Positions 31,992-52,751 of a stretch of DNA of 64,000 nt are shown here, in pieces. The DNA is taken from the NCBI GenBank assembly GCA_964502815.1, contig CAZCXV010000001.1, forward strand, positions 7,907 to 71,906, in the 5' to 3' direction. The notes beneath the pieces are model-generated. The model was not told the DNA's origin, searched no databases, and was given only the letters and a program-made list of their open reading frames with translations. The position numbers and the translations under genes are program-made. This DNA is from an uncultured Gammaproteobacteria bacterium (GTDB lineage Bacteria; Patescibacteriota; Microgenomatia; UBA8517). Every line of letters begins with the position of its first letter. Position 1 is the stretch's first letter.

Positions 31992-33262
31992 TGTTTTATC
32001 TTCTTAAATCTACTTAATACCCAAATTGCTGGAATTACAAAGTTTGAGAGGTTTCCAACTAATACTGTCACACTTGCCCCCATATAACCAAACCTAGAAA
32101 TAAGTATCCACCCAAGACCACCAATTATTAGCAAATGCACTAGACTTATCCAAATGAAAAGAGATGGTTTGGAAAAATAGTAAAAAACTGCAGTGTGAGC
32201 AGGGATAGAGATTAAAAATACTGCTTGAGCAATAAGTAAAACAATAAAAGGCTTGACTGCTTGCGCAAATTCACTTCCAAAAAAGTTGGGTATCACCAGA
32301 TAGGCCAAAGGAATTCCGATTACAATTTCAACAAGCCCTAAAATTACTACAAAGACCTGGAGCTTATTTAAATATTTGATTACCTTCTTTTTAGAATCAA
32401 AAGCCGCAAGTTTTGGAGCAACAACCGTTGCAATCCCCGCGACAATTTGTGAGCCAACAGCCGCCAAAGACACAGCTGCCGAATAAATGCCAACTTCACG
32501 AAGAGTCAATATTTTAGCGGAAAGATAAGTATCAAGTCGTCCAGAAATCGCAGCTATTAAAATAAATAGCGCTACCCATTTATTATAGTGCATAAATTCC
32601 TTTGCAACTTCGTGGCTTCTTTCTACTTTAAGATAATTTGGCAGGAAAAATGATCCAACTATAAAACCAATAAATGGAAAAAGAACATATATCTGGAGCG
32701 AACTCTCAGTATTAAGGTTGCCTAGAAAAAACAAAATTACTATACCAATAAGCCGTATGGCATTTAAACAGATGTTTAAAACTCCCCAAACTGCAAATTT
32801 TTCAAAGGCCTGAATGGCATTGGTTGTTAAGCTAAAAAGAAGTATTCCCAGTGTTCCTAAAAATGCGTATCTTAACGGATAAGCCAGTTCTGGTTTTTCC
32901 AACAGATAAGAAATCGAGGGACTTAAAAGCCAACCAAAGGCAAAAACCATTAGTCCTGCCAAAACCTTAATCTCTAATCCCAACTTAATAAACCTAAGGG
33001 CTTTATTTAGATTTTTCGCCCGATATTTGCCGACAAACTTAATTATGCCAGTATCTGTTCCGACATTTGCAATATCAGCTAAAAGCGTCATCGTAACAAC
33101 TACGACTGAAAAGATGCCAAACTTTTCAGAGCCCAAAAATCTTCCAAGAAGAATGTAAAAAGCCACACCCAAAAGCCCATTTGTTACAGTTGAAGTTGAA
33201 GTAAGTATAGATTGCCTGACAGTCCTCGCCGAGAGAATATTTTTTAAAACCTCAATTTTCAT
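31988..33262 (-). CDS. Polysaccharide/oligosaccharide flippase, Wzx-like (MOP superfamily)
   Basis: 12-14 TM helices. The N-terminus TVRQSILTSTSTVTNGLLGVAFYILLGRFLGSEKFGIFSVV is typical of Polysacc_synt. Confidence 0.8.
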   Translation of the reverse strand: MKIEVLKNILSARTVRQSILTSTSTVTNGLLGVAFYILLGRFLGSEKFGIFSVVVVTMTLLADIANVGTDTGIIKFVGKYRAKNLNKALRFIKLGLEIKVLAGLMVFAFGWLLSPSISYLLEKPELAYPLRYAFLGTLGILLFSLTTNAIQAFEKFAVWGVLNICLNAIRLIGIVILFFLGNLNTESSLQIYVLFPFIGFIVGSFFLPNYLKVERSHEVAKEFMHYNKWVALFILIAAISGRLDTYLSAKILTLREVGIYSAAVSLAAVGSQIVAGIATVVAPKLAAFDSKKKVIKYLNKLQVFVVILGLVEIVIGIPLAYLVIPNFFGSEFAQAVKPFIVLLIAQAVFLISIPAHTAVFYYFSKPSLFIWISLVHLLIIGGLGWILISRFGYMGASVTVLVGNLSNFVIPAIWVLSRFKKIKQ

Positions 33263-35855
33263 AGTTTGATTTTTTCAAAAGATAATAAATTGTGAGAACA
33301 AGTCCAAAAACAACTGTCAAATACATCCCCCATCTAACGTTTTTCTGACCTATAAATTCTATTCCAGTGTTACCCCAAGTGCTCTCGACGTAGAAAGCAT
33401 TAACCATGGAATAAAGAGGAATAGAATCAAAATATTCTATTCCCCTTCTTAGTTGCCAAAATGGATGATAGTTTTCATTCATAATTAGCCAGTGATTTTC
33501 TTCCAAAGTCGTAAACTTATAGTTAAGTGTTCCAAACTTCTCCATAACTGCCGGGATGATTTTATTTGTTTCATTTTCAAGCTGTTTTGTATTTACTACC
33601 CCAAAATGGGTTAAAAATGTCTCTGAAAGTGTTTGAGCTTTAGCAAACTCGGCTTTTGGAATCAAAGCAAGAGTATTTAGAACAGTTAATCCGCCTCTAT
33701 TTTTAATAGTTACTTTTTGCTGCCCTCTCTTCAAATCTTTTAGTTCTTCAGATAGCCAAACAAAGTTATCCCTCTTAACAGTCCCAGTGTCGAAAATATT
33801 TTGAGTATTTGCATTCTCAAGTCCTTGTGAATCTTTGTTTGTCATCATGCGGACTAGAAGTAAATAATTTCCCTCTTCTGGAATATTCAGTTCAAACTTT
33901 ATTTCTTCTCCATCTTTGGTAGAAAAAGCAATGCCTTTTTGATAATCAAAATCTTTATATGTGACTCCTCTAATTAAAAGCTCATACTTGGCCTTCAAAT
34001 ATTGATTAGTAGGAAAAACAGACCACTGCGTAGAAGTATTTTGTCCTGGAGATACAAAATACTTCTGCAAAAAGCTCATTGTCAAATCTATTTTATCTAA
34101 ACTATTAAAGTAAATTTTTAGCGAATCTGGTTTTTTGCCTTCAAGAAGCCTTGGATCCCACTTTCCGTCCTCAAAATAAACGGTTGGAAGTGTGGTAGAC
34201 AACGGTTGACCAACAACCGCAAAGATTTTATCGACAAAGTAGTAGTTGGGATAAATTGGTTTACTATTAGAAACTTCATAGACTGGAATCTCGGTTCCCC
34301 AATCTACTTTTCTAAGGTCTTTATTTGCAGCAAGTAAGTTATCTATCGTTTGCCAATTCTCCTGCTCTTTCTGATCTTTTTTAATAGTTCTAGGATCGTC
34401 AGACAATATTAAATACTTGATTCCAAGCGTTCTAAACCAATCAACAAAATCAGGATGATGCAAAAAATTAAACCAGTCTTCACTAGTGTTCATTTTAGCG
34501 AAAGGATAGGAGTTAACTAAAGTAAAGGCATCGAGTGCTGGTTGGTCGTTTGTTTCAAAAGTCAAAGGATGTCTTTCTGGAAACCAAACGGCTCTAAAGG
34601 TATCGATTTGTTGATCTAGGTTTTTTGAAATAGTCAAATAGTCACTGCTCTGATTCCTATCAGAAAGTATAAAGTTCAATTTACCAAGAAGTGCTGGATA
34701 AATTAGAAATAAAATATACACATAAACAACAACAGAGGGGATAAAAGAGAAATTTCTGATTTTAAACATCCTAGTCAGTTTTTCAACTGTATGTCCAATT
34801 AGTAGTCCTGCAAACAAAATCACAGGAAGGAAAAACTTTGATGAATCTCTAAAAGCAAAACCAAAAGGAAGGTTAACAACTAGGTCATACCAATCACCAA
34901 GGGGAGGCGTGTTGCCTTTGGCAAAAAATGAAAATAATAAAAATAAAAATGCGATTAGGAAATATTTTTTCTTCTTAGTAAAAATTAAGCCTGTAAAAAT
35001 AAGTATTTGCAAGAAAGCAAAATACCAGAAGGGCTGCTGAACTTTGCCAAACAGATTTCCTGGCCAGTGGGGCGAGAAAAGAAACAAAGGATGTAGGATC
35101 GACGTCAACTGCAAATTAGAAACACCCAAAGAAACATTTCCGGTTGTGTTTTTAAGAAGTGGAAACAGCCAATACAAATTAAGAGCTATAAACGCAACTA
35201 ACAACAGTCCTAAGCTTTTGAGTTTTTTAAACTCTCCTGCAATCAAGATCCAAGCAAAGATTGTTAGAAAGGCAATAGTCGCAACTCTAGGGTCAGCGAT
35301 TGAATTGAAAGTCAATAGGGTTAAGGCCAAATAAAAACTATGTAGATTTGGCTTAACTGTCAATCTTTTAGTTGCCAAAATACTAAATGGAAAAATACCA
35401 TAGGCCAAAACAACACCAACCTGCCCGCCGTCTATCAGAAGCAAAAAGTAGGTGTTGAATAGATACACAAGGCAAGTAAAAAAAGAACCTAATTTTGAAA
35501 GTTTCAGACTTCTAGCAAGAAAGTACGAGCCAAAAACAGCAAAAAGAATACCAGGAAGGTAAAAAACTATCAGTGAGGTTAGATCTGAAGACAATGAAAA
35601 AAACTTGGCCAAAAGGCCATACAAAATCGTCAGTGGAGAAAGCCATAACAGCAAGTTTACTCCACCGAAATTTATCCCTCTTTGTGTCCAGGCTAGTGGT
35701 TCAAAAACAAGTTCGTTAACTTCTGAAGGCAGAAAATGCGGAGCATCACCCCAATTCATTGAGCCATGCCAGTAAATATTTCTGATAAGAAAAACAATTG
35801 GCACAAGAATGAGAAAAGAGAAAAATACATTAAGAAGTAGAGTTTTAGTTTTCAT
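33252..35855 (-). CDS. Large polytopic membrane protein (867 aa) with C-terminal extracytoplasmic domain and terminal TM; probable GT-C-like glycosyltransferase
   Basis: About 14 N-terminal TM helices, a soluble domain of about 450 aa, then a C-terminal TM (MYLTVVFGLVLTIYYLL). Confidence 0.55.
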   Translation of the reverse strand: MKTKTLLLNVFFSFLILVPIVFLIRNIYWHGSMNWGDAPHFLPSEVNELVFEPLAWTQRGINFGGVNLLLWLSPLTILYGLLAKFFSLSSDLTSLIVFYLPGILFAVFGSYFLARSLKLSKLGSFFTCLVYLFNTYFLLLIDGGQVGVVLAYGIFPFSILATKRLTVKPNLHSFYLALTLLTFNSIADPRVATIAFLTIFAWILIAGEFKKLKSLGLLLVAFIALNLYWLFPLLKNTTGNVSLGVSNLQLTSILHPLFLFSPHWPGNLFGKVQQPFWYFAFLQILIFTGLIFTKKKKYFLIAFLFLLFSFFAKGNTPPLGDWYDLVVNLPFGFAFRDSSKFFLPVILFAGLLIGHTVEKLTRMFKIRNFSFIPSVVVYVYILFLIYPALLGKLNFILSDRNQSSDYLTISKNLDQQIDTFRAVWFPERHPLTFETNDQPALDAFTLVNSYPFAKMNTSEDWFNFLHHPDFVDWFRTLGIKYLILSDDPRTIKKDQKEQENWQTIDNLLAANKDLRKVDWGTEIPVYEVSNSKPIYPNYYFVDKIFAVVGQPLSTTLPTVYFEDGKWDPRLLEGKKPDSLKIYFNSLDKIDLTMSFLQKYFVSPGQNTSTQWSVFPTNQYLKAKYELLIRGVTYKDFDYQKGIAFSTKDGEEIKFELNIPEEGNYLLLVRMMTNKDSQGLENANTQNIFDTGTVKRDNFVWLSEELKDLKRGQQKVTIKNRGGLTVLNTLALIPKAEFAKAQTLSETFLTHFGVVNTKQLENETNKIIPAVMEKFGTLNYKFTTLEENHWLIMNENYHPFWQLRRGIEYFDSIPLYSMVNAFYVESTWGNTGIEFIGQKNVRWGMYLTVVFGLVLTIYYLLKKSNYEN

Positions 35856-39805: not shown

Positions 39806-41434
39806 ATGATAGAAAGTCTACTACAAAAGAGAAACATAAATATTATCGAGACACTAAGTCTAATTTTTGTGCTTGCTTTTGCCTTTATTTACAGAATTTA
39901 TTTGCTAATTCACACTTCAGTAACTTTATACTCAGATGATGCTATCTATGCCGAACTCGCAAGATTTGCCACTCAAGGCCAATGGTATCGAACTTTTCAT
40001 CCGACGTGGTCACCACTATTCCCAACCGTCTCTTCTTTAATCTATCCATTTTTTGAAAGCTGGGAAACGACATTAAGGTTTATTTCAATCCTGTCGGGAA
40101 TAGCAACATTGATACCGTTGTACTTTCTTGCCAAGAGTTTATTGTCTAGACCTCAAGCTGTAGTGTTTATTTTAATAACTAGTTTTCTTATTCCCCTTCT
40201 TGATTTATCTATTTTTCCTTTGTCTGATACACTCTCAACCTTTTTTGCAATAACCGGGATTACTTTTATTTTTTTTGGCCTCAAAAGAAATATTGAAAAG
40301 TACTATTATTTTGGCTCTTTTTTCTTTGGCTTGACTTACCTAACTAGATCAGAAGGAACAGTTTATTTTTTCTTCACCCTATTATTTTTGTCAATCTATT
40401 TTTCCTTCCTATGTTTTATTAGACATGATAAAAAGACTCCATACTTCAGAAGCCTACTTTTATTCGTAATTATATTTCTCATAACTGTCAGTCCTTACTT
40501 AATTGCTACCAAAAATCAACTTGGGAAATGGACACTATCTCACAAGGTGTCTGCTCAATTCAAACAAGGCCACGCATTCCAGGTTAGAGAAAATACGGGA
40601 TTAACCTGGATTCAAGAGGTAGTCTCAGTGAAAACTCCGAATTACAAATCTGAATACTTTACCGGTGGAATTAGTTATATCATCGATAACCTTGATTGGT
40701 ATATGTTTTGGTTTGGTGAGAAATCAGCAACTTGGTCAAAAGTGTTTAAAGAGAATTTTCCACTTTGGTCAACTCCTATAATATTGATCGGTAGTTTGAA
40801 ATTTCTTCAAAAGAAGAATTTCTGGAGTTTTGGTTATTTGGTTGCTATTTTGTCATTTGCAATACCACTAACTATTTTTGCCACTCCTTTGGCACAAATG
40901 CGTTATCTTTTTTGGACTATTCCATTTTTAATGCTTCTTGTCTTTTTGGGAATCGATTTGCTAATACACCTAATTTTACCAAAACCAAAAGGAATTACTA
41001 TTTTACTTGCAACAGTTGCGGCTGTTTTAATGGTCACAAAATTTCCATCTTTTGACAAAGCACTTATTTTTCAGCCAAAAGCATATATTCAAGCTTTTAC
41101 CAACATTCACAAAAGAGAAGAAATTTATGATTCAGGTGTATGGCTAAAAGAAAATAGTAAAAGCACAAATCCAAAAATTATGATGTTGCATGAAGGAATT
41201 GAATTCTATGCAGACGGAGAGACTATCTACATTCCCCAAAATCATACAATTGATGAAGTAATAATTTATGGAAAGAAATTGAAAGCGCAATATATAATTG
41301 CTTGGACTGAAGAGCTTTCTCACGACAAAAATCTTTCTGTTTTGCTCACTGAAAATTACACCCACCCTAATTTGAAAAGGATTTATAAAACTGAATCAAA
41401 TGGCCGAAAAGTCATTATTTATGAGATTTACTAA
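39806..41434 (+). CDS. Polytopic membrane glycosyltransferase GT39/ArnT/PMT_2-like
   Basis: N-terminal loop LYSDDAIYAELARFATQGQWYRTFHPTWSPLFP (DD..Y and hP..PL motifs). About 13 TM helices. Confidence 0.75.
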   Translation: MIESLLQKRNINIIETLSLIFVLAFAFIYRIYLLIHTSVTLYSDDAIYAELARFATQGQWYRTFHPTWSPLFPTVSSLIYPFFESWETTLRFISILSGIATLIPLYFLAKSLLSRPQAVVFILITSFLIPLLDLSIFPLSDTLSTFFAITGITFIFFGLKRNIEKYYYFGSFFFGLTYLTRSEGTVYFFFTLLFLSIYFSFLCFIRHDKKTPYFRSLLLFVIIFLITVSPYLIATKNQLGKWTLSHKVSAQFKQGHAFQVRENTGLTWIQEVVSVKTPNYKSEYFTGGISYIIDNLDWYMFWFGEKSATWSKVFKENFPLWSTPIILIGSLKFLQKKNFWSFGYLVAILSFAIPLTIFATPLAQMRYLFWTIPFLMLLVFLGIDLLIHLILPKPKGITILLATVAAVLMVTKFPSFDKALIFQPKAYIQAFTNIHKREEIYDSGVWLKENSKSTNPKIMMLHEGIEFYADGETIYIPQNHTIDEVIIYGKKLKAQYIIAWTEELSHDKNLSVLLTENYTHPNLKRIYKTESNGRKVIIYEIY

Positions 41435-41777
41435 CAACTTTTTTAATCTTCCTTTCATCGTCTAACGCTAAATTTCGTACTAATTTAGTTATTTTTCGAT
41501 CAACCTCGTTTAATGCAACTAAAAGTCTATACAATAGATAAAAAATAACTATCAAAGAAATGTATATTACCAAGTCAACCCCTCTACTAATTTTCAAGTA
41601 GTGAGCAATATTGGAAACAAGTTGTTGCTGAAAAATAAGAAATAACACCGACAGCCAAAATAGTATCCAAATTAAAGCAAAACTCACAGAGAGGTTTTTA
41701 TCGCGAAACGCGATCAACGTCCTCGTTATGATGAAGACAACAACTATTGAAAGTAATATCTGTGACGGCATAATCAT
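41415..41777 (-). CDS. Small 4-TM membrane protein (DUF2304/GtrA-like accessory of polyprenyl-phosphate glycosyltransferases)
   Basis: 120 aa with 3-4 hydrophobic helices. Overlaps the upstream GtrB-like GT2 by 4 bp (ATGA). Confidence 0.55.
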   Translation of the reverse strand: MIMPSQILLSIVVVFIITRTLIAFRDKNLSVSFALIWILFWLSVLFLIFQQQLVSNIAHYLKISRGVDLVIYISLIVIFYLLYRLLVALNEVDRKITKLVRNLALDDERKIKKVVSKSHK

Positions 41778-42508
41778 TTGCTAAGTAATGCTTTTGATAT
41801 CAACTCAAACGGGATCTTTAGCGCTTCTGAGTTTTTCTGGCCTTTTCTGATTGAATAGTTAGTATACTTTACAGTTACTGGAACTTCCTTAATTCTCAGT
41901 TTGTTTTTACTGATTTGATAGATAATATCTGAAGGATGTGCCCAGCGATTGTGTTTAATATCCAGAGTGGCAAGCGCCTTTCCACTAAATGCTCTAAAGC
42001 CGTTGTGGGTGTCTGTTAATTTTAAGCCAGAATACAATCTTGTAAAAATTAAGCCCAGACGAAGAACAATAAATCTCACTAACGGAATATTTATTGTTTT
42101 TCCCAAAAACCTAGAGCCAAGGACAACATCAGCTTGCCCAAGTATTACTGGTTCTATTAAGCGACTGATCTCACTTGCTGTTTGTTGCCCATCAGCATCG
42201 AAAGTTACTACAACACTCGTCTTAATTTTTCGAGCAAAATCAAAACCTGTTTGAAGTGCTGCTCCTTGACCAAGATTGATTACGTGTCTTAAAACTGTAA
42301 TTTTATTGCTTCTTATCATCTTTACTTTTTCAAATGTATCATCAGTTGAACCATCATCAATCAAGATTAACCGATCGCAAAAACGTAAAACTCTTTGCAT
42401 AACCCCAGTAATAGTTTTTTCTTCATTGTATGCAGGCATAACTACAACTCTATCTCCAGTAAGGCTTTGTTTGTTTCTCTTCATATATACAGAGTTTACT
42501 GCGGACAC
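41774..42508 (-). CDS. Polyprenyl-phosphate sugar synthase, GT2 DPM1/GtrB/ArnC-like
   Basis: VVVMPAYNEEKTITGVMQRVLRFCDRLILIDDGSTDDT...VVVTFDADGQQ. Short (244 aa), lacking the C-terminal TMs. Confidence 0.85.
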   Translation of the reverse strand: MSAVNSVYMKRNKQSLTGDRVVVMPAYNEEKTITGVMQRVLRFCDRLILIDDGSTDDTFEKVKMIRSNKITVLRHVINLGQGAALQTGFDFARKIKTSVVVTFDADGQQTASEISRLIEPVILGQADVVLGSRFLGKTINIPLVRFIVLRLGLIFTRLYSGLKLTDTHNGFRAFSGKALATLDIKHNRWAHPSDIIYQISKNKLRIKEVPVTVKYTNYSIRKGQKNSEALKIPFELISKALLSK

Positions 42509-42526: not shown

Positions 42527-44278
42527 TTATTTTTTAACTATCAAATAATTTTCCACTACTAAGGCATCAATTCCACTTTTCATAAATGTGTTATAAGCGT
42601 CTTGAATAGTATTTACTATTGGCTCTCCTTTTAAATTGAATGATGTGTTCATAAGAACGTTCACACCAGTTTTCTTACCAAAAGCACGGATAACATCATA
42701 GTAAGCCTTATTGTCTTGTCTTTTTATGAATTGTGGTCTTGCCGTACCATCCACATGGGTTATCGCTCCCAAACTCTTCTGCCATTTTGGTTTCACTGGT
42801 ACAACCGCTATCATATATTGAAGTGGTTGCTGGTCTGCTCCCTTGCCAACTCCACCACTAACATCAAAATATTTATCACCATATTCGTACAAGCAAACTG
42901 GGGCAAATGGTCTAAAAGCTTCCCTGAATTTTATTTTTGCATTAACCAAATCGCGCATTTTTCTATCTCTTGGATCAGCAAGTATACTTCTTGACCCCAA
43001 AGCTCTTGGCCCCCATTCAAAACCACCTTTTACCCAACCAATCACCCTCTTGTTTGTTAACATAGAGGAAACTATTTGTGTAATTTGATTGTCACTTAGT
43101 TTATTAAATTTAATATTGTTTTCCTTTAGGAATACCTCAATATCACTATCTTTGTTACCAGCTCCTAAATATGGGGTTGTAAATTCACTTTTCACAGGCT
43201 TTGGATTACCCAATACATGATGATAAAGATAAAGGGCTGCTCCCAATGCTCCTCCGGAATCTCCAGCCGCCGGATGGATAAAAATATTTTTAAAACCTGC
43301 CTCTCGGAAAATTTTCCAGTTAGTAACACCATTTAGAGCTACTCCTCCGGCATAACAAAGATTTTCCTCCCCAGTTTTAGCTATTACGTTTTTTGCAATT
43401 ACCAATAGTTTGTCGTCCAATACTTTTTGAGCAGATGCTGCTATATCAGCATATACTTTTTCAACATTGTCGCTTTTTTTGGGATCCATCGGGCTGATAC
43501 CAAATAAATCTATAAATTTTTGAGAATACGAAACCTGATCATTCAAATGAAAAGTAAAATATTCAAGGTTCAAACTAAACGCTCCGTCAGCAGATTGATT
43601 TATAAGTTTTTCGACCTTATCCTCATATTTCGGCTCTCCATACGGGGCGAGTCCCATCACTTTGAATTCACCTTCATTTACCTGAAAACCTAAGAACTGT
43701 GTAAAAGTAGAATATAAAAGTCCAAGTGAGTGAGGGAACTTTAGTTCATGAGACAAAGTAACTTTGTTTTCCTGCGCGGTTCCCCAAGCGGTCGTAGTCC
43801 ATTCACCAACACCATCACATGTCAGAACGGCTGCTGACTTAAATGGAGAGGTGTAATAGGCTGCTGCTGCATGAGAAATATGGTGACCAGTAAACAATAT
43901 TTTTTTTGAGTCAACTCCTACTTCTTTAGCAAGAGTCGACTTGATCCAAAGCTTATCCTTCAACCAAGTCCTATACGCGTTTACAAATTGACTCCGAGCA
44001 TGTGGAACTGTAGCAAAGGAAGAAAGAGTAATTCTTTCAAATTTTGTGAACGGCTTCTCATAAAAAACAACATAGTTTAAATCCTTTGCGGTTATTTGTG
44101 CTGTTTCCAAACAATAGTCGATGGCCTTTCTGGGAAAACCAGAATCATGTTTTTTACGACTAAACCTTTCTTCTTCGGCAGCAGCAACTATTTTGCCATC
44201 AATAATAAGTGCGGCGGCAGCGTCATGATAGTAACAAGACACTCCCAATATTCTGGTAATTTTGTTTTTATTTTTCAT
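42527..44278 (-). CDS. NodU/CmcH-family O-carbamoyltransferase
   Basis: N-terminus ILGVSCYYHDAAAALIIDGKIVAAAEEERFSRKKHDSGFP and the downstream HHISHAAAAYYTSPF are hallmark carbamoyltransferase motifs. 583 aa. Confidence 0.9.
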   Translation of the reverse strand: MKNKNKITRILGVSCYYHDAAAALIIDGKIVAAAEEERFSRKKHDSGFPRKAIDYCLETAQITAKDLNYVVFYEKPFTKFERITLSSFATVPHARSQFVNAYRTWLKDKLWIKSTLAKEVGVDSKKILFTGHHISHAAAAYYTSPFKSAAVLTCDGVGEWTTTAWGTAQENKVTLSHELKFPHSLGLLYSTFTQFLGFQVNEGEFKVMGLAPYGEPKYEDKVEKLINQSADGAFSLNLEYFTFHLNDQVSYSQKFIDLFGISPMDPKKSDNVEKVYADIAASAQKVLDDKLLVIAKNVIAKTGEENLCYAGGVALNGVTNWKIFREAGFKNIFIHPAAGDSGGALGAALYLYHHVLGNPKPVKSEFTTPYLGAGNKDSDIEVFLKENNIKFNKLSDNQITQIVSSMLTNKRVIGWVKGGFEWGPRALGSRSILADPRDRKMRDLVNAKIKFREAFRPFAPVCLYEYGDKYFDVSGGVGKGADQQPLQYMIAVVPVKPKWQKSLGAITHVDGTARPQFIKRQDNKAYYDVIRAFGKKTGVNVLMNTSFNLKGEPIVNTIQDAYNTFMKSGIDALVVENYLIVKK

Positions 44279-44496
44279 TGCTCTTTGAGTTTAGACAGAG
44301 TCGACGAATTGTCTTCGACCTTTTCCCAGGCTGGAAAGGATTTAATTCTAAAATAATCATTCACCAAGTTGGCAATCAAGCCAGTTGGAACAATAATCAA
44401 GAAATACAATATGGAAAAAATAACGCCCGCCTGAAAATTTCCAATTTTTTCGGCAACTTCCTTCCACTTATTCCATAGACCTTTAACGGTTTTCAT
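44275..44496 (-). CDS. 73-aa single-TM membrane protein translationally coupled to both OTC (upstream) and carbamoyltransferase (downstream)
   Basis: ATGA overlaps at both ends: its stop overlaps the carbamoyltransferase ATG at 44276-44278, and its start overlaps the OTC stop. It has a hydrophobic core AGVIFSILYFLIIVPTGLIANLV. Small proteins of this kind commonly accompany NodU-like genes. Confidence 0.6.
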   Translation of the reverse strand: MKTVKGLWNKWKEVAEKIGNFQAGVIFSILYFLIIVPTGLIANLVNDYFRIKSFPAWEKVEDNSSTLSKLKEQ

Positions 44497-45413
44497 TTTG
44501 TTTTTCTCGCCTTCGACATTAAATAGATTAGCAGTGCCTTTTGAACATGAAGTCGATTTTCGGCTTCATCATAGACTACAGAACTACTTGAATCAATTAC
44601 ATCTGTAGTCACTTCATAACCACGATACGCAGGTAAACAATGCATAAAGATAGCTTTTTTGTCTGCCAAGTCAAACAGTTTCCTATTAACTTGGTAGTTT
44701 TTAAACTTTCTTAGTCTTTCCTCTTTCTCTCCTTCACTGCCCATTGATACCCAAGTGTCAGTAACTACAACGTCTGCGCCAATTACGGCTTCAGCGGGAT
44801 CTTCAATTTGAATTAAATTTTTTCCCAACTTTTCGACAATTGATTTAGCCATTTTGTACCCTTTAGGGCTTGCGCAAGAAAATTTCATACCCATTTTACT
44901 TGCAAGCAGTGCCAAAGAATGAGTAACATTATTGTTGCCATCTCCGACGAAAACGACTTTCAATCCTTCAAGTTTTTTCTTGTGCTCCAAAATAGTAAAT
45001 ACATCCGCCAGCGCTTGGCAAGGATGTTCAAAATCAGATAAAGCATTAATTACAGGAATCTTTGTATTCTCCGCTATATCAATTAGTTTTTGATGTTCAA
45101 AAACTCTCGCCATAACAATATCAACCATCCGTTCCAGGTTTCTAGCAATGTCTTGAGGTGTTTCCCTTTTCCCCATTTGAATATCATTTGGCCCCAAGTA
45201 AATCGCATGTCCACCAAGCTGGGTCATCCCTACTTCAAAAGACACTCTTGTCCTCAGGGAGGGTTTTTCAAATATCATTGCCAAAGTCTTCCCTTCCAAA
45301 GTTTTTCGAATATAACCTCTTTTGATCTCGGCTTTTAGTTTTTTTGTTAAGTCAAAAATCTTCCATACCTCTGATAGTGTTAGATCATCGATTCCAAGAA
45401 AATGCTTAATCAT
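44493..45413 (-). CDS. Ornithine carbamoyltransferase family (ArgF/ArcB-like transcarbamylase)
   Basis: Carbamoyl-phosphate site PSLRTRVSFE, ornithine-site DTWVSMG, and HCLPAYRGYEVT. 306 aa. Confidence 0.88.
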   Translation of the reverse strand: MIKHFLGIDDLTLSEVWKIFDLTKKLKAEIKRGYIRKTLEGKTLAMIFEKPSLRTRVSFEVGMTQLGGHAIYLGPNDIQMGKRETPQDIARNLERMVDIVMARVFEHQKLIDIAENTKIPVINALSDFEHPCQALADVFTILEHKKKLEGLKVVFVGDGNNNVTHSLALLASKMGMKFSCASPKGYKMAKSIVEKLGKNLIQIEDPAEAVIGADVVVTDTWVSMGSEGEKEERLRKFKNYQVNRKLFDLADKKAIFMHCLPAYRGYEVTTDVIDSSSSVVYDEAENRLHVQKALLIYLMSKARKTK

Positions 45414-45578
45414 AAATTTAAAAAAGTGGATAAATTATTGGAGCCAATGGACTGGAACCAATAAAAAGGATAAGCACCGCAAAAACTAGAAATATGATCA
45501 ACATTGGCATAAGCCACCAAAGTTTTCTTTTCCAAAGAAAAGAAAACAGTTCCTTTAATATCGAAAATTTTTCTAGCA

Positions 45579-45974
45579 TTAATTATCCTTCGTTTTTCTC
45601 TTTGTAATAATGCCACTAGTTTCAATAAAAAGCAATAGTGTACCAAGCAAGAAAGCTTGGAAAGCATATACCGAAGTTCTTTCGGACCAAATATCCACTC
45701 CAACAATTCTTAATACCCCTGCAAACAACCAAAACAAAAGTGCTATCAAATAAAACGCAACACTACGAGCATCCAATAAGAAAATTGCAAAAATAAGTGC
45801 TAAAACTACAACAATATTCACACTAATTGGCAAATATGGATGGAAATAACCAGCAGAACGCAATAAAACTAACAACATAACAAGGCCGTTAAAAATACCA
45901 ATTCTCAAATAATGAGTTTTAATCCAATGAAAAACATCGTCATTAAACATCTCAATAAATTTTGTTAATTTCAT
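45579..45974 (-). CDS. Small polytopic membrane protein (131 aa), coupled (ATGA) to the upstream 1032-aa membrane protein
   Basis: 3-4 hydrophobic helices. The start overlaps the stop of 45971..49069. Confidence 0.5.
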   Translation of the reverse strand: MKLTKFIEMFNDDVFHWIKTHYLRIGIFNGLVMLLVLLRSAGYFHPYLPISVNIVVVLALIFAIFLLDARSVAFYLIALLFWLFAGVLRIVGVDIWSERTSVYAFQAFLLGTLLLFIETSGIITKRKTKDN

Positions 45975-48900
45975 TTTCTGTCCTTTAAATAGACCGTTAA
46001 GACAATCATCGCACTTAGCGTTGCAAGTAAAACTCCCAAATAAAAATATTTCTGGTTTTCAAAGTATATCTCTAGATCGTATTCTGAAGGAGTGTCTTTT
46101 AGATACCAAGCGTTGGCATATAAATTGGCCGAAAAATGAAGTGGTGTCCCCAAGATAGCTCCACCATTTGAATAACTCAATTTAGTTTTCCAAGCTGGAT
46201 GATAATTCTCAGCAAAAATTATCACATGGGGACCAAGGACATTTTTAACTTTAGCTTTATACTTTACAGGCGAAATTTTCTCAAAAGTTATGTTTGGTGT
46301 CGCCAGAATAGGAGTATCTTTTTCCATAAACAATAATTTGTTGGTAAATACTTTTCTTACTGTAATATTATCGTAATTTATTTTTGTTCCGAGCGGGTCA
46401 TTAGTATATGGGGCGGATAAAATTACCTTCATTTCAGAATTTGTCTTAACTGGTTCATAGTAATAACTGAAATGGTTCCACTCGGGATAGTTTGGTAAAC
46501 GTTCCGTTTGAGTTTTGACTAAAGATGTCTTTGTACTTTGCCCTGCATATGAAACGCCGTTGTTTCCATAGATCTGCCGATAATCAAATTCAACCAAATA
46601 AGGAGAGAAAAAGTCAAAATTCTGCACATCAAAATCTGCTGATACGTCTGCCTTACCAATATTATATATTTCTAAATATTTCCTGCCATCTGTGTCAACT
46701 ACTCTATATCTGGCTTCACCAACGGTACCGTAACCTCCCTCGTTGAATTTTTGATTGTCAAGTACATCTACACCGACCAGATTATTGTTAACGAGGTATA
46801 TTTCGGTTTTATGATTACCCTTGGTTAAAAATATTTCCTCATATAAGATAACAGAACTATTTATGTCACTAATTTTAAATTTTTCTTTTTTTCCATCTAG
46901 TACAACTTCCAAGTCATTTGTGGGATCTATTCCAAAATCATCTAATTTATACCGCTCCAATTGAGGTCTGTAATTACCGTCCTTAGGTATATAAAAAGTG
47001 AAAAGCACTTTTGATAAATCTCTTTGAGTTAAACGATTGGCTAGTTTAGACTGTGAATAATTAAACTCCCTATATTCTCTTTCTTGAGTGTTTTCCGATA
47101 ACACTATTCTCCCCACCATCGTGTCTAGATCACTAATCTGGGCAGCTACCTTGTCGTCAGGATTCAAAAGAGTTTGTTTAGCCAAAGGTAGAGCCAAGAA
47201 CCCCTTCGCACCCGCATTATAAGGGTAATAGTAAAAAAAATTATTTGTACTATAAATCTTACCTTCAATTTCAGAGCCTATCGGAAACTTAATAAACTTC
47301 CATGGTCCATACTCTACTTTTTCAGTTAAAACTAATTCATTAGCTAACTTCGGTGCAAGACTTGGTTGATCTCCTTTCAAGAAGATATAACCTATGTTTA
47401 GCCTATCAGCCAACCCACTTGCATATTCTAATTGCCCCATCTTCATGCCAAGGTATAAGTCCTTTATTGTTTCAGATATTGCAGTGCTAGTTGCATTAAG
47501 CGCAGAGAAAACTGTCTCAACATTTGATCCCAAAGAAAGAATAGACTCAATTCCTCTATACCCCCAAGCATAGTTCTCTATCTCATCGTCTGGATAGCTA
47601 ATCACTCTTTCAGATATGTTTTTGTTTGACCAATTATTTGCATCAAAGACATATTGTGGAAATTTGACAAAAAAACCATCACTTCTACCAATCCTAAAAA
47701 TTTTTCCAGTGACTAACGGATAACAATACACTAGATTTGCTAAAACCAAAACAAGAAAAAATATATTGTTAAAAAGTACAAAGGGTTTATTAGCATCATC
47801 CTTAAAAAATTTATCTACTTTTTGATACAAAAGTCCAAATAAGGCAGCATATGAAAAAATAAGCAATGGTGTGAATATATACCAAGGACTACGGAAAAGT
47901 GAGAAAAATGGTACATGCTCACTCAACCAAACAAATACAACTCCAGTTGGATGGTGAGAACCCGCTCCCAAAAAGGTTCCCAGTAGCATCATTACAGCAA
48001 AAGACAAATAATAGTTGGTATTGGCAAATTTACCGCCTATCTTTGTTCTAATTGTTCCAACAATAAGCGACAACAGCGCCAAAGTGGGAAGTAAAATACT
48101 AAAAGCTACAAATGGAAATTTCCTAAAATAGTTGAGTGCATAAGGAATATATAATGGAAGCTTTGTAATTTGATCAAAAGCATACCAGTCCCAAGCACCT
48201 TGAAGCCGAAGGACATTTACCAAATTGGTATTTTCTGACAAACTATTAAGCCAATTAGTAAAACCAATGGCACCAATACTTGCAGATGGGGAAATACTCC
48301 CCAAAATGAATACAAGCGTAGGAATTATCCAAAATAAGTTAAATAAGAAGACTGCCAAATATATAATTAAGAGATTTCTTATTAAGAAAATAAGTTCATT
48401 TTTTCCTCTCGTAAGTATATATCCAAATTGGAAAACAAATATGATCAAATAAAGGGTTATAAAATAAGCTGGGTTTATTCCTGTTCCTGAAATCAATATC
48501 GCCAATGGGATCGAAAGAAAAGCTGCCTTTTTCCAGCTAATTTCTCTATTATTCAACCTATTTATAATTCCTAAAGCTAGAGGAATTCCAATAACCAAAG
48601 AGAGGTTGGCAACTTTAACATTCTCCCAAGTGTTGAAAAGGTACGTATTGAATGAATAGAAGACGACAAAAATAAGGTTGGCAATGCTTTTTTTACCAAA
48701 AATTGAACTTGAAAAATAATATGCTAAGTAAACAATGCCCAAAAACCAAAAAAGTAAACTAATTATTTGAACGAACTGTAAAGAGAACCCAAGTGCATAT
48801 GGCAATGCCTGGATAAAATGAAAAAGTATCCCGGCAGTTGAGCTTGAAAAATCATTACCAGCGTTGGCAATCCCATTCCAAACAAAAAACCTTCTTAGAA

Positions 48901-49069
48901 ACCAGACTAAAGGATTTAAAGGAAAGTTGGTATCAACGCCATTAATTAATGTTCCATTGACCAAGGCATTACTTTTCCCTAGAAACCAAATCAGTGGTGT
49001 AAAGCCAAGCAACAAAATCAAAGGTAAAATCGTTTTTTTCAACACACTGCTATTGATCTTTAACTTCAT
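45971..49069 (-). CDS. Very large polytopic membrane protein (1032 aa), N-terminal ~12-TM domain + ~550-aa extracytoplasmic domain + C-terminal TM; probable GT-C glycosyltransferase (AftD/DUF3367-like architecture)
   Basis: The hydrophobic N-terminal half holds multiple helices. The C-terminal anchor reads YFYLGVLLATLSAMIVLTVYL. The family assignment is tentative. Confidence 0.6.
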   Translation of the reverse strand: MKLKINSSVLKKTILPLILLLGFTPLIWFLGKSNALVNGTLINGVDTNFPLNPLVWFLRRFFVWNGIANAGNDFSSSTAGILFHFIQALPYALGFSLQFVQIISLLFWFLGIVYLAYYFSSSIFGKKSIANLIFVVFYSFNTYLFNTWENVKVANLSLVIGIPLALGIINRLNNREISWKKAAFLSIPLAILISGTGINPAYFITLYLIIFVFQFGYILTRGKNELIFLIRNLLIIYLAVFLFNLFWIIPTLVFILGSISPSASIGAIGFTNWLNSLSENTNLVNVLRLQGAWDWYAFDQITKLPLYIPYALNYFRKFPFVAFSILLPTLALLSLIVGTIRTKIGGKFANTNYYLSFAVMMLLGTFLGAGSHHPTGVVFVWLSEHVPFFSLFRSPWYIFTPLLIFSYAALFGLLYQKVDKFFKDDANKPFVLFNNIFFLVLVLANLVYCYPLVTGKIFRIGRSDGFFVKFPQYVFDANNWSNKNISERVISYPDDEIENYAWGYRGIESILSLGSNVETVFSALNATSTAISETIKDLYLGMKMGQLEYASGLADRLNIGYIFLKGDQPSLAPKLANELVLTEKVEYGPWKFIKFPIGSEIEGKIYSTNNFFYYYPYNAGAKGFLALPLAKQTLLNPDDKVAAQISDLDTMVGRIVLSENTQEREYREFNYSQSKLANRLTQRDLSKVLFTFYIPKDGNYRPQLERYKLDDFGIDPTNDLEVVLDGKKEKFKISDINSSVILYEEIFLTKGNHKTEIYLVNNNLVGVDVLDNQKFNEGGYGTVGEARYRVVDTDGRKYLEIYNIGKADVSADFDVQNFDFFSPYLVEFDYRQIYGNNGVSYAGQSTKTSLVKTQTERLPNYPEWNHFSYYYEPVKTNSEMKVILSAPYTNDPLGTKINYDNITVRKVFTNKLLFMEKDTPILATPNITFEKISPVKYKAKVKNVLGPHVIIFAENYHPAWKTKLSYSNGGAILGTPLHFSANLYANAWYLKDTPSEYDLEIYFENQKYFYLGVLLATLSAMIVLTVYLKDRK

Positions 49070-51080
49070 ATATTTGTAATTCGTTTATTACCCAAGGCGC
49101 AAATTGATGATAACCGATTTGATGTATTGTAACAAAACGTACCGGTTTTGGTAGTACATATATTTCCGTTATCCCCTTTTCGTTGGGTAGGCGTCTTTCG
49201 ACTTTATATAACTCTTGCCAAATAATTTTGTCTTGTGACCCTTCAACTAAAAATCCAACTTCATTTTGATCCTTACTGGCACTCGAGTCTATTCTAATAA
49301 GTGAAATGTTTTTACTTTTTCCAAAATCAATTGTAATACTTTGAGGATAATAATAGGCAAGAAGTGAGCTCCAATAACTATTTTTGTTTGAATCAATCAA
49401 TTTTTTGATATCATTCTGGTTATTGGTTGAGGTAATTTGATTTTCCTGTAAAAATATTTGCCTCTGATTTAATTTTTTAGATAAATATTCATTTCGAACT
49501 CTTAGCGAGATATCGCTCAAACTCCTATTATTACTATTAAAAGAAAAAGCATAGACTGATTCCACAGGAATCTTTTCTTTTTCTATTATATTTTCCATCT
49601 GTGTTTGATCATAGAAAAAGCCAAAACCAAAATCATCAGCTTCTTTGTATCCTTGATCTTGTATTCCCCAAAGAAATTCATCTCTAAAAAAGTAAACCGG
49701 TATCTTTTGCTTCTGTTCATAATTTACAAGCAGTAATTGCCCAAACCCAGATTGAAAAGGTAAGATTTTTTTATTTATTCCATAATGTGCTCTATCCGAT
49801 TCTACGTACACCAAAGATTTTTGAGGGAGAATAGGTAAATACGAGTTAACTGCATAAACAATATCTTTTCTTATTTTGGCCTGCGAAAGTAAATGCTCAA
49901 ATGTTTTCTGAAGATAATAAACATTAGTGACAACAAGCAGTGCGAAAAATAACACAACAATGGTCTTATAGAAAAACTTCTTTGGGTTGTCGAATTTACT
50001 AAATAAATAACCAATATAGATACTCGCGGCAATGCTTGCTGTATAAAAATATCTTGAGTCGGGATAGATCAAATATTTGTTAGTTATCACCAAAGGAAGA
50101 CTACTAAATAGGTTGAAAGTGAAATACAAGAAAAGTATTTTTGTATTTTTTCTAGTTGTCAAAAAGACTAGCAAAGTTACAATAGCTCCAAGCAATAAAG
50201 CTATTAACTCGAAAGAATAATCATTACTGACAACCCAGATTTTATTTGGGTCTGGCAAAAACTCAATTAGCCTCGGGGTAAGCCAATTGGCTGCATTTAT
50301 CAAAACATCCTGAGGAACAAATATTTGACTTATAAATTTTAGCGGTAGTGTCGCTAGATTATATACAATATTATTTAGATAGTCAGTAGGTTGACTAGTT
50401 AAATTGGTAGTCGCACTCGCTTGGCCAAAGAAAATATAAGAAAATTTCAGAAACAAATACATAAATGCTACTGAGAGTAATTTTAGAAACCTATTTAAGT
50501 TTTTTTCGATGAAGATTGAGCTCACTATTAATATACCATAGAAGGTTAAAGCATTTTCCCTATAAAGAAGTGAAACAAAGATAAAAACGAGTGAAAGCCA
50601 GAATCTTCGTTTGTAGGTCAAAAGAGATAATATTCCAAATAATGTTGACCCCAAAATACCTTCAAATGTGCCAATCCAAGTGATTGCTTGGTGATTGCTT
50701 GCGCTCAATGCAAAAAAAAGTGCTCCTAAAAAGGCTGATTTTTTCTTTTTTAGTAAATCGAGTAGAAAAAAATATAGAGAAACTACCACAGTAGAATGAA
50801 GCAAAATACTCACAACAAAATATGGTTTTTCGTCAAGTCCAAAAAGATTGAATATAGTCGATTTTGTAAGAAGCGATAATGGCGTAAAGTGTGCCAAAAG
50901 CCCTCCTTTTAATATTATGGCAAGCGCATCAGATAGGGAATTTGAAAACACATAAATATAGTGTCCAAAACTATGCCATTCGTCTTGTTCGAAGTAACTA
51001 TTGATTATTTGGCTATAGAAGACTATTACTATCACCAGCAATATTGAAACAGGTAGAATATGTTTTACAAGATTTTTCAT
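49050..51080 (-). CDS. Polytopic membrane protein with C-terminal F5/8 type C (discoidin) carbohydrate-binding domain
   Basis: About 11 N-terminal TM helices. The C-terminus NSYWSSLLAYYYPQSITIDFGKSKNISLIRIDSSASKDQNEVGFLVEGSQDKIIWQELY fits the discoidin pattern (W.s...pqw..iDlg....i..i.i......y.ve.S.dg..W). Confidence 0.7.
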   Translation of the reverse strand: MKNLVKHILPVSILLVIVIVFYSQIINSYFEQDEWHSFGHYIYVFSNSLSDALAIILKGGLLAHFTPLSLLTKSTIFNLFGLDEKPYFVVSILLHSTVVVSLYFFLLDLLKKKKSAFLGALFFALSASNHQAITWIGTFEGILGSTLFGILSLLTYKRRFWLSLVFIFVSLLYRENALTFYGILIVSSIFIEKNLNRFLKLLSVAFMYLFLKFSYIFFGQASATTNLTSQPTDYLNNIVYNLATLPLKFISQIFVPQDVLINAANWLTPRLIEFLPDPNKIWVVSNDYSFELIALLLGAIVTLLVFLTTRKNTKILFLYFTFNLFSSLPLVITNKYLIYPDSRYFYTASIAASIYIGYLFSKFDNPKKFFYKTIVVLFFALLVVTNVYYLQKTFEHLLSQAKIRKDIVYAVNSYLPILPQKSLVYVESDRAHYGINKKILPFQSGFGQLLLVNYEQKQKIPVYFFRDEFLWGIQDQGYKEADDFGFGFFYDQTQMENIIEKEKIPVESVYAFSFNSNNRSLSDISLRVRNEYLSKKLNQRQIFLQENQITSTNNQNDIKKLIDSNKNSYWSSLLAYYYPQSITIDFGKSKNISLIRIDSSASKDQNEVGFLVEGSQDKIIWQELYKVERRLPNEKGITEIYVLPKPVRFVTIHQIGYHQFAPWVINELQIYEVKDQ

Positions 51081-51788: not shown

Positions 51789-52751
51789 TCATATCAAAAA
51801 TCTTCTTTTGATAAACACCACCAAATAACTTACAACAGAAACAAAACACATAAGTGGATGGAGCAACCAAGCTTTCTGGCGCTCTTTAATACAATTAAAC
51901 ACGCCTTCAATAAACGGACCAATTATCGAAGCGCAATAGACAGCACTCATGACAAAACGTAATTTTGGTATACCCTCAACCCAAGTTCTTTTCTTTTCAT
52001 CTTTTCTATTTAGATACTTATTGCCAATCTTAAGGCGTTTGTTGATAAAATCCCTCAACGAGTTAACATGGTAATGGTAAATACCAACACCAGGGATCCT
52101 AGCAAATTTTCTAAAACCTGCCTCTTTAGCAAAGAAGGAGAAATTTGACTCTTCAAATTTTTGCGAGTACTGGCCAACTTTTTTAATAACTCTCTTGTTC
52201 CATAAAAACCCATTTGCACCTAAGGGATAACTGGAATTCTTTGGAATTGTAAGCTCGATATAGCCTGATTTTTGTTTTTGCTCCAATTTTCCAGCAATAC
52301 TTCGAGAAAATGGGTCTGCAATATGCGCAACCATGCAATAGGTGTTGTAAATACTCTCACCTTTTTTTGGAAAATAATAAGATTCGACACCAAATAGATT
52401 CGGGTCGTCAAGTAATGGTTTTACCATTTTAGCTAACCAATACTTACTTATTATCTCATTATCAGAATCAAGTAGGGCAACTATTTCCCCTTTTGAATGC
52501 TTTATACCAATTGATTTTGCTGATTCCGGATCTACTTTAGGGTTATCAATCACTTTTGCTCCATGTTTATGGGCAATTGTACGTGTAGCATCTTTTGATC
52601 CTCCATCAATAACAAAAATTTCATACTTATTTTTAGGGTAGATTTGTTTTTTAACACTTTTCAAGCATTTTTCCAGATATATTTGAGAATTGTATGTAGG
52701 TACAATAAAGGTGACAAATGGATGTTGCATCTCGTGCTTATTGTACCTCAA
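51789..52751 (-). CDS. Glycosyltransferase family 2
   Basis: FVTFIVPTYNSQIYLEKCLKSVKKQIYPKNKYEIFVIDGGSKDAT...LLDSDN. A C-terminal TM is present. Confidence 0.8.
   Translation of the reverse strand: MRYNKHEMQHPFVTFIVPTYNSQIYLEKCLKSVKKQIYPKNKYEIFVIDGGSKDATRTIAHKHGAKVIDNPKVDPESAKSIGIKHSKGEIVALLDSDNEIISKYWLAKMVKPLLDDPNLFGVESYYFPKKGESIYNTYCMVAHIADPFSRSIAGKLEQKQKSGYIELTIPKNSSYPLGANGFLWNKRVIKKVGQYSQKFEESNFSFFAKEAGFRKFARIPGVGIYHYHVNSLRDFINKRLKIGNKYLNRKDEKKRTWVEGIPKLRFVMSAVYCASIIGPFIEGVFNCIKERQKAWLLHPLMCFVSVVSYLVVFIKRRFLI

Follow-up and report, generated by a model that had tools for sequence, protein, structure and literature searches.

A stretch of 64,000 nucleotides from a Microgenomates genome (contig CAZCXV010000001.1, positions 7,907 to 71,906; this whole 64-kb stretch is called the window below) carries an ornithine transcarbamylase (OTC) gene that is embedded in an O-carbamoyltransferase cassette lying among glycan genes. 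The cassette encodes a carbamoyltransferase (CT) of the TobZ/SxtI type and two small membrane proteins, one SxtJ-like and the other belonging to the DUF5989 family. The placement of the OTC gene hints, without proof, at its recruitment as a supplier of the carbamoyl donor, and the reading favoured here, with a probability of about 0.4, is that the enzyme serves as a local generator of carbamoyl phosphate (CP) for the O-carbamoylation of glycans. ArgF-type OTCs, TobZ/SxtI-type CTs, SxtJ-like and DUF5989 partners, CTs in glycan loci and a catabolic OTC in the candidate phyla radiation (CPR) all belong to kinds already known. What is new is the embedding of an OTC in a CT cassette, together with a Microgenomates clade of OTCs that resides in glycan loci with no carbamate kinase (CK) nearby. 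Full-text literature searches found no description of an OTC embedded in a CT cassette or of an OTC in a CPR glycan locus.

The four genes concerned are the following, all on the minus strand:

45418..45579, minus strand: DUF5989, a 53-aa protein with a single transmembrane segment, SxtK-like by size and position (PF19451, 59 bits for a cut-off of 27)
44493-45413, minus strand: OTC of the ArgF type, 306 aa (921 bp), between the DUF5989 and SxtJ-like genes
44275-44496, minus strand: SxtJ-like protein, 73 aa, single transmembrane segment, predicted to be remotely related to the C-terminal half of SxtJ
42527-44278, minus strand: CT, 583 aa, of the ATP- and CP-dependent O-carbamoyltransferase family (SxtI/TobZ/NodU), with PF02543 and PF16861

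Insertion of the OTC gene into a conserved cassette

The OTC, 73-aa protein and CT genes were confirmed as a minus-strand trio by open reading frame (ORF) calls, and the ATGA start/stop overlaps that an earlier note on this DNA had described at 44493-44496 and 44275-44278 are both present in the sequence. The same note spoke of a fusion of the OTC to the CT, a term that does not fit three separate ORFs without any fusion protein, and it overlooked the DUF5989 gene, which ends 4 nt upstream of the OTC start. The OTC gene lies exactly between the DUF5989 and SxtJ-like genes, with this 4-nt spacer on its upstream side and the ATGA overlap on its downstream side.

The cassette was compared with those of close relatives (CT identity 67-75%). 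A homologue of the 73-aa protein is encoded immediately upstream of the CT in 23/23 informative relatives, DUF5989 lies next to the CT in 22/22, and the three genes are contiguous in 21/22. None of the 23 cassettes contains an OTC, and none was seen in the flanks of up to 10 kb that were fetched for 80 CT loci, nor in the Hainich groundwater relatives L007-L011. The juxtaposition of OTC and CT is lineage-specific, confined to the lineage of the window. The 73-aa protein had been proposed to tether the OTC-CT pair at the membrane, a role at odds with its occurrence as an SxtJ-like partner of the CT in 23 relatives that all lack the OTC.

The overlaps do not single out the trio, because 4-nt overlaps are common across the window (17 of its 47 same-strand junctions; any overlap at 30 of the 47). 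They indicate tight packing and probable co-transcription. The genes of the trio are indeed linked by their overlaps, but the coupling that had been deduced from them is not specific to the trio. Scans for promoters (44 sites versus 41±6 expected) and for terminators (10 versus 6±3 expected) were uninformative.

Two related loci carry other inserts. At L109:8258-9736, an unrelated 492-aa polytopic membrane protein is encoded exactly between the DUF5989 and SxtJ-like genes, and at L104:6559-9598, a 3-kb block (a 243-aa ORF, a 304-aa ORF and a reverse-strand 464-aa membrane ORF) separates DUF5989 from the gene of a 131-aa membrane protein (m131, described below). These two inserts indicate that the junctions of the cassette tolerate insertions.

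A counterpart of sxtI-sxtJ-sxtK

An HMM (hidden Markov model) search of the 73-aa protein, which the earlier note had proposed, returned no direct match in Pfam (E<=0.01; the gathering score of PF19588 is 24.4) or NCBIfam, and an apparent NCBIfam match to PnuC was rejected as chance-level (E 0.009). Its affiliation appears at the profile level. In distant relatives (CT 43-52% identical), DUF5989 is encoded downstream of CT/SxtJ, the order being either CT, a 134-162-aa protein and DUF5989 or a short protein, CT and DUF5989. The 134-162-aa proteins match SxtJ (PF19588) at 46-62 bits, and a set of 108-aa forms matches the C-terminal half of PF19588 at 31.7 bits. Alignment by hhalign of the 73-aa family with the PF19588-verified SxtJ proteins (31.7-62.5 bits) gave a probability of 97.4% (E 1.2e-11, 70 columns in the C-terminal half). 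In addition, an exhaustive profile search with the 73-aa family retrieved 506 representatives, mostly of 67-80 aa, several of which reach PF19588 at sub-threshold scores (17-24 bits, profile positions 50-98). Judging from these profiles, the 73-aa protein that adjoins the CT is most likely a short, remote relative of SxtJ.

Because of the SxtJ profile match and of the adjacency of DUF5989 and CT, the unit can be viewed as the counterpart of sxtI-sxtJ-sxtK: it is an SxtK-like/SxtJ-like/O-carbamoyltransferase cassette with an OTC inside. In the saxitoxin cluster, sxtJ and sxtK are uncharacterised ORFs adjoining sxtI (PMC2885083), i.e. two small ORFs of unassigned function accompany the O-carbamoyltransferase (PMC2885083; PMC2684587). 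The saxitoxin genes and the widespread CT-SxtJ-DUF5989 triads resemble the window cassette in that a CT with PF02543 and PF16861 is flanked by two small membrane proteins. The window cassette departs from them in several ways: its order is DUF5989, SxtJ-like, CT instead of the CT-SxtJ-DUF5989 order of the triads; its SxtJ-like protein is half-length (73 aa, one transmembrane segment) and below the Pfam threshold, unlike SxtJ; it is interrupted by the OTC gene; and it belongs to a setting of surface-glycan synthesis, whereas the sxt cluster specifies an alkaloid pathway. DUF5989 is likened to SxtK by size and position only.

In two of the distant relatives, proteins with a GDS(L)-type motif are encoded between the CT/SxtJ genes and DUF5989 (L156:12630-13799, …VGDSFTEGYG…; L164:11715-12794, …IGDSLTEAFQ…). 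Their placement recalls the neighbourhood of sxtI-J-K-L, where sxtL encodes a GDSL lipase.

The carbamoyltransferase

Membership of the CT in the O-carbamoyltransferase family, as proposed in the earlier note, is borne out by both Pfam domains, Carbam_trans_N (PF02543, 288.1 bits for a cut-off of 24) and Carbam_trans_C (PF16861, 221.8 bits for a cut-off of 27), and by its solved relatives, the best PDB matches being GdmN (295 bits), the carbamoyltransferase 7xb6, NovN and TobZ. The motifs CYYHDAAAA and HHISHAAAAYY quoted earlier are present, and the alignment to GdmN shows that HHxxHA, GGVAxN, HPAxxDxG, GPRALGxRS, FRPFAPV, THVDGTAR and NTSFN are all kept. An identity as HypF (20.6 bits versus 466) or TsaD (18.2 bits versus 296) was rejected, and the score on PF00814 (19.4 bits) falls below 24.8; the CT is thus not of the HypF-like or tRNA-modifying kind that, according to the earlier note, would have overturned its reading. 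The CT is not a NodU equivalog either (NF041651, 138.1 bits for a cut-off of 1000).

Like TobZ, GdmN and NovN, the CT has two domains (Kae1-like at the N-terminus and YrdC-like at the C-terminus), and its metal- and nucleotide-binding motifs align with theirs. By homology, their mechanism can be assigned to it: CP and ATP would yield carbamoyl-AMP, from which the O-carbamoyl product would be formed. However, the identity is only ~30-35%, the substrates of the three enzymes are secondary metabolites and, unlike them, the CT has membrane-protein partners and a glycan context. WapO (PA5005), encoded in the lipopolysaccharide core cluster of Pseudomonas and held to O-carbamoylate heptose II (PMC8005017), is another parallel. 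WapO, NodU of rhizobia and the CT are alike as PF02543-family enzymes encoded among glycosyltransferases, but no dedicated CP-supply gene is described for the former two. Pseudomonas and rhizobia have carAB.

The ornithine transcarbamylase

The OTC passes two curated models, NF001986 (424.6 bits for a cut-off of 306) and TIGR00658 (392.2 bits for a cut-off of 280.85), and both Pfam domains are present. Its CP-site motifs SLRTR (residue 52) and HPCQ (130) are intact, as are its ornithine-site motifs GDGNNNV, DTWVSMG (219), which contains the SMG triplet pointed out earlier, and HCLPAYRG (258). None of them varies among the eight members of the clade that were compared (see the next section), and they are identical in argG-linked orthologues. 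A search for active-site changes specific to the clade yielded only four substitutions, none diagnostic or within a known substrate-binding motif, and R-V at 103-104 is shared with OTCs of plants and of Pyrococcus. From these motifs, the enzyme is predicted to be catalytically intact; it is of the canonical ArgF type.

An identity as putrescine carbamoyltransferase (PTC) was rejected (TIGR04384, 354.4 bits for a cut-off of 500; 261 bits with PTC structures among the PDB matches), as was that of an N-acetylornithine transcarbamylase, which is excluded by the HMM cut-offs and motifs. The distinction between OTC and these two enzymes, on which the earlier note had left some doubt, is therefore settled in favour of OTC by the HMM cut-offs, the motifs and the solved relatives. 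The latter share ~50% identity with the window enzyme, and the best of them are anabolic OTCs, from the chloroplast of A. thaliana (8qeu, 321 bits) and from P. furiosus (1a1s, 312 bits), whereas the catabolic ArcB structures (1dxh/1ort, 2w37, 4amu) score only 156-192 bits. The description of the OTC as an enzyme of the arginine deiminase pathway is contradicted by these scores, and an identity as ArcB was rejected on this similarity and on the lack of a linked arcC or arcA in the window or in the flanks of orthologues.

The negative results on gene families given here and below cover the 64-kb window and the fetched flanks of orthologue loci. Family scans detected no arcA, arcC, carAB, argG or argH in the window, and no member of the AA_kinase or Amidinotransf families in the window or the orthologue flanks. 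Within this glycan supercluster, the OTC gene stands as an orphan. Its composition (GC 0.376, GC3 0.319) does not differ from the window means (0.362±0.023 and 0.313±0.038) in a way that would be a sign of foreign origin.

Genomic contexts of OTC orthologues

Contexts were compared for 15 distinct OTC loci, including the window. Seven of them are glycan loci (the window, L012, L014, L015, L177, L181 and L017), in which the immediate neighbours of the OTC differ. In L012 and L014, the OTC lies between an F5/8-type-C protein and a GT2, and, farther along the same co-directional array, a PF02543 CT of 596-600 aa is encoded 6 kb downstream; as this CT is only 32-34% identical to that of the window, the OTC occurs with two CT subfamilies. 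In L015 the OTC gene is located among GT4, GT2 and PMT_2 genes, and in L177 near an AftD-like GT-C, a flippase and GT2s. In L181 it follows homologues of the two membrane proteins encoded upstream of the window cassette (big1032 and m131, see below) and has an ATGA overlap into the gene of a membrane protein at the contig end. A CT is found within 6 kb of the OTC in three of the seven glycan loci (the window, L012 and L014). As a background control, 75 generic OTC loci of bacteria and archaea (L022-L096) were taken, mostly Firmicutes and Proteobacteria OTCs found by contig scan and sharing universal motifs only; none of them has a CT within 10 kb.

Six of the 15 loci have an arginine or pyrimidine context (L018, L019, L180, L179, L021 and L020). 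The gene argG precedes the OTC in L179 and L021, and L020 has a fragment of argG two genes upstream of its OTC. The neighbours of the OTC in these six loci thus include enzymes that use CP or citrulline. No gene producing CP lies near the OTC at any of the 15 loci, and no arcA, arcC, carAB, argG or argH was detected in the flanks of L012, L014, L015, L017, L177, L178, L181 and L182.

In a neighbour-joining (NJ) tree, the glycan-locus sequences group, together with two sequences from thioredoxin contexts, in a derived clade of orthologues at 65-70% identity (bootstrap 73% without L017, 60% with L017), the arginine- and pyrimidine-linked sequences being basal. The window OTC is sister to that of L181 (bootstrap 90%), and, when L017 is counted with the derived clade, glycan loci make up seven of the nine loci sampled. 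The position of the basal orthologues beside argG, pyrB and LysX suggests that the ancestral role of the family was anabolic. Taken as a whole, the tie between the OTC and glycan decoration that had been proposed holds insofar as orthologues recur in glycan loci, but adjacency of OTC and CT is limited to the window lineage.

Some of these loci have features of their own. In three of them, the OTC is directly followed by an aspartate transcarbamylase (ATCase; TIGR00670, 312-314 bits): L018:9992-11927, L019:9992-11876 and L180:8001-9953. The pair heads a pyrimidine operon in L180, and no carAB is present in the flanks of the three loci; in these, the OTC could feed the ATCase with CP obtained from citrulline. 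In L179 (6391-8001), the gene located directly upstream of the OTC and of pyrC-pyrD-pyrF-pyrE encodes an argininosuccinate synthase (TIGR00032, 428 bits) with a C-terminal extension of ~130 aa that is homologous to the allosteric (MGS-like) domain of CarB (positions ~920-1046). In L021 (8630-13991), argG and the OTC are followed in turn by genes for an EamA transporter, a second transcarbamylase and LysX (302 bits for a cut-off of 276). This second transcarbamylase is below all NCBIfam cut-offs (AOTC 244<288, OTC 238<281, YgeW 235<453), and L021 possibly encodes an arginine pathway of the LysW type with an unusual transcarbamylase. Lastly, a 569-aa CT that is 68% identical to that of the window (P0077) and the OTC orthologue of L014 (P0138) come from the same source and are probably carried by one contig of 44,522 bp; if so, another genus too would have a window-type CT no farther than ~35 kb from an OTC.

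A model for carbamoyl phosphate supply and its alternatives

The following model can be drawn for the recruitment of the OTC as a local source of CP. An intact ArgF-type OTC gene has been inserted between the DUF5989 and SxtJ-like genes in one Microgenomates lineage and is presumably expressed from the same polycistronic array as the cassette. The enzyme would run phosphorolytically, converting citrulline and phosphate into ornithine and CP, and the CT would pull this unfavourable reaction by the irreversible conversion of CP and ATP into carbamoyl-AMP, taking the place that CK has within the arginine deiminase pathway. A hydroxyl on a surface glycan, either lipid-linked or nascent, would then receive the carbamoyl group from the CT. 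Direct observations are the identities of the genes, the insertion, the close packing and the finding of OTC orthologues in several glycan loci; we infer the direction of the reaction, the source of citrulline, the acceptor and any physical coupling.

This model is favoured because of the precise insertion of the OTC gene, the persistence of its clade in glycan loci through several arrangements, its co-localisation with two types of CT, its orphan status and the tendency of CPR OTCs to adjoin consumers of CP. TobZ-type enzymes consume CP with ATP. Furthermore, catabolic transcarbamylases can make CP if a downstream CP-consuming enzyme pulls the reaction (PMC6022934), and among CPR bacteria the arcABCD operon of Saccharibacteria is a known case in which an OTC serves catabolically (PMC8764695). 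The proposed reaction is that of ArcB in the arginine deiminase pathway, likewise pulled by a consumer of CP. However, no arcA, arcC or arcD is found near the window OTC; the enzyme is ArgF-like; the puller would be an ATP-dependent O-carbamoyltransferase instead of CK; and the purpose would be biosynthetic (glycan decoration), whereas the arginine deiminase pathway generates ATP. A wider form of the model is more tentative: in a clade of Microgenomates, an OTC of anabolic type may have been repurposed as a citrulline phosphorylase that is the cell's source of CP for glycan O-carbamoylation (and, in basal relatives, for the ATCase and pyrimidine synthesis).

The probability of the CP-supply model was set at only ~0.4 because the cassette lacks an OTC in all sampled relatives, the enzyme looks anabolic, the junction is prone to insertions and the sample is small. 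Most of the points that weigh against it also support another explanation, somewhat unlikely in itself, in which the gene is a housekeeping argF, i.e. an ordinary anabolic OTC, turning ornithine and CP into citrulline for the synthesis or salvage of arginine, that was shuffled locally and by chance into a hypervariable, recombination-prone glycan array and has no functional tie to the CT. The nearest solved relatives are indeed anabolic OTCs, far closer than the catabolic ArcB enzymes, and the cut-offs of the OTC equivalogs are exceeded. The absence of an OTC from 23/23 related cassettes implies that the CT does not need a dedicated OTC in general. The insert at the same junction in L109, to which the 3-kb insert at the m131/DUF5989 junction of L104 can be added, suggests an insertion hotspot. 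As overlaps of 4 nt are ubiquitous in the window and normal in this genome, coupling is not peculiar to the trio. Basal orthologues adjoin argG and LysX, which points to arginine biosynthesis and thus to another source of CP, presumably available to at least some Microgenomates. Two members of the clade (L178 and L182) are located outside glycan loci, in unrelated thioredoxin/metal-resistance contexts. To these can be added, against the CP-supply model, that a CT is present in the fetched flanks of only 3/7 glycan-locus OTCs, that the sample of contexts is small (15 loci) and that the NJ support is moderate. A chance passenger nevertheless fits poorly with the lack of any other arginine gene in the 64 kb of the window or in eight other loci of the derived clade (including L017). 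The OTC has also been kept in glycan loci through at least five arrangements of neighbours, which would be unexpected for a neutral passenger unless its moves were local, and the 4-nt spacer upstream and overlap downstream leave no room for a promoter, so that its expression is tied to that of the glycan genes.

Two further explanations retain a link between the OTC and its neighbours. In one of them, which is improbable, the OTC would work in its usual direction and both it and the CT would use CP made elsewhere by CK or carbamoyl phosphate synthase (CPS), their adjacency serving to co-regulate or balance a labile pool of CP, as in OTC-ATCase pairs and in the channelling from CK to OTC and aspartate transcarbamylase (ATC) reported for Pyrococcus. 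The ATCase genes directly after the OTC in L018, L019 and L180 reveal a tendency of the phylum to cluster CP users, the OTC of P. furiosus ranks with the best relatives of known structure, and CK-based synthesis of CP with channelling to OTC and ATC is described (PMC6022934). Such sharing is opposed by the lack of a CP-producing gene near all 15 OTC loci, by the citrulline, which without argG or argH nearby has no visible use in glycan loci, and by the adjacency of OTC and CT, which is not conserved among relatives of the cassette. It is very improbable that the substrate has changed, the OTC-like enzyme carbamoylating or decarbamoylating, during glycan tailoring, a compound different from free ornithine, for instance putrescine, an amino sugar or a glycoconjugate that contains ornithine. 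Its position inside glycan operons and its similarity to PTC (354 bits with the model, 261 bits with the structures) would agree with such a change, but the PTC score is well below the cut-off while both OTC models are exceeded, GDGNNNV, DxWxSMG and HCLPAxRG are intact and the same in argG-linked orthologues, and the few substitutions specific to the clade spare the known substrate-binding motifs.

Surroundings of the cassette in the window

Four other genes of the minus strand adjoin or extend the cassette:

45971..49069, minus strand: big1032, a 1032-aa polytopic membrane protein, conserved upstream partner of the cassette
45579..45974, minus strand: m131, a 131-aa membrane protein that always follows big1032, without family match
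41774..42508, minus strand: GT2, a 244-aa protein resembling polyprenyl-phosphate sugar synthases of the PpgS type (PF00535, 79 bits)
41415..41777, minus strand: DUF2304, a 120-aa membrane protein, partner of the GT2 (PF10066, 71.6 bits; 4-nt overlap with the GT2)

These genes and the cassette belong to an unbroken minus-strand array of co-directional glycan genes that extends from ~63663 to 41415 (~22 kb). Family scans of the whole window agree with the earlier placement of the trio inside a glycan locus. The 30-64 kb part encodes glycosyltransferases (GT2, GT-C of the PMT_2 family), DegT aminotransferases, an epimerase/dehydratase, hexapeptide acyltransferases, methyltransferases, a flippase and F5/8-type-C-domain proteins. 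The 1-30 kb part encodes GT1/GT4/GT2 enzymes, a Bac_transf initiating transferase, Wzy_C and a nucleotidyltransferase, with a few housekeeping genes (MraZ/MraW, RecO, a kinase and a tRNA synthetase).

big1032 has no Pfam or NCBIfam match. Full-length homologues (36-50% identity) precede the cassette in at least 11 related loci, and L181 encodes one too. Its weak similarity (E 1e-12) to a protein of L177 annotated GT-C_AftD was noted, and we infer that it is probably a glycosyltransferase of the GT-C type. Homologues of m131 (40-51% identity) sit between big1032 and DUF5989 in related loci, again at least 11; in the window, the m131 gene has a 4-nt overlap with that of big1032 and a 1-nt TAATG overlap with that of DUF5989. 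The conserved module therefore comprises a GT-C-like protein, a small membrane protein, the SxtK-like DUF5989, the short SxtJ-like protein and the soluble CT of the TobZ/SxtI type. It is a membrane-associated module of glycan tailoring that probably adds carbamoyl groups to surface sugars.

The GT2 scores 173.5 bits over its full length with the model of PpgS proper, the mycobacterial polyprenyl-phospho-N-acetylgalactosaminyl synthase (NF058614), below the cut-off of 370, and was retained as a GT2 homologue only. The polyprenyl-phosphate sugar synthase that had been announced downstream of the CT is thus present as a PpgS-like GT2, but the GT2/DUF2304 pair was not found downstream of the CT in close relatives and is a lineage-specific addition. 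The DUF2304 family pairs with PpgS in mycobacteria, and the window pair presumably resembles the Rv3631/Rv3632 arrangement; this hints at the synthesis of a lipid-linked donor of an amino sugar beside the CT.

Several other proteins of the minus strand are unusual. A 380-aa protein (55504-56646) combines a segment of hexapeptide-repeat acyltransferase (residues ~83-117) with a GT2 domain (152-283). Two very large membrane or secreted proteins are without Pfam match (45971-49069, 1032 aa, listed above; 33252-35855, 867 aa), and two others (49050-51080, 676 aa; 52738-55449, 903 aa) match Pfam solely through a discoidin (F5/8 type C) domain at the C-terminus. Proteins of this F5/8-type-C sort are also neighbours of the OTC in L012 and L014. 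The names of homologues place the organism in the Microgenomates (CPR/Patescibacteria). An exact look-up of the window OTC returned no entry, but a near-identical OTC of 306 aa is carried by an NCBI contig of 180,619 bp, and the 73-aa protein was found in identical form. Six independent ENA/JGI metagenome assemblies, including at least one from groundwater, contain fragments of the locus (L001-L006, 99.7-100% nucleotide identity), and the organism is recurrent in the environment.

Significance

The triad of the SxtI/SxtJ/SxtK type is a module of Microgenomates glycan loci, tied to a large GT-C-like protein, and it provides a second context, unrelated to toxin synthesis, for the study of the uncharacterised SxtJ and SxtK. 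On the side of the OTC, CPR enzymes are found repeatedly beside consumers of CP (ATCase or O-carbamoyltransferase) and not beside its producers. The locus is ordinary if its OTC turns out to be a mere passenger. If the OTC feeds the CT, this would be a fourth physiological way to obtain CP for biosynthesis, by a transcarbamylase run backwards under the pull of an enzyme that forms carbamoyl-adenylate. If the clade as a whole has been turned into citrulline phosphorylases, the route would be pulled by a transferase forming carbamoyl-adenylate, not by CK, organisms without CPS or CK could live on scavenged citrulline or arginine, and the window would show the route at its most explicit, its OTC being wired into a cassette of the SxtK/SxtJ/SxtI type. 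The supply of CP by the OTC, if true, predicts that Microgenomates have O-carbamoylated glycans at their surface and depend on citrulline or arginine derived from the host, and it would exemplify how genome-reduced CPR bacteria rewire leftover enzymes of amino-acid metabolism for the chemistry of their cell surface.

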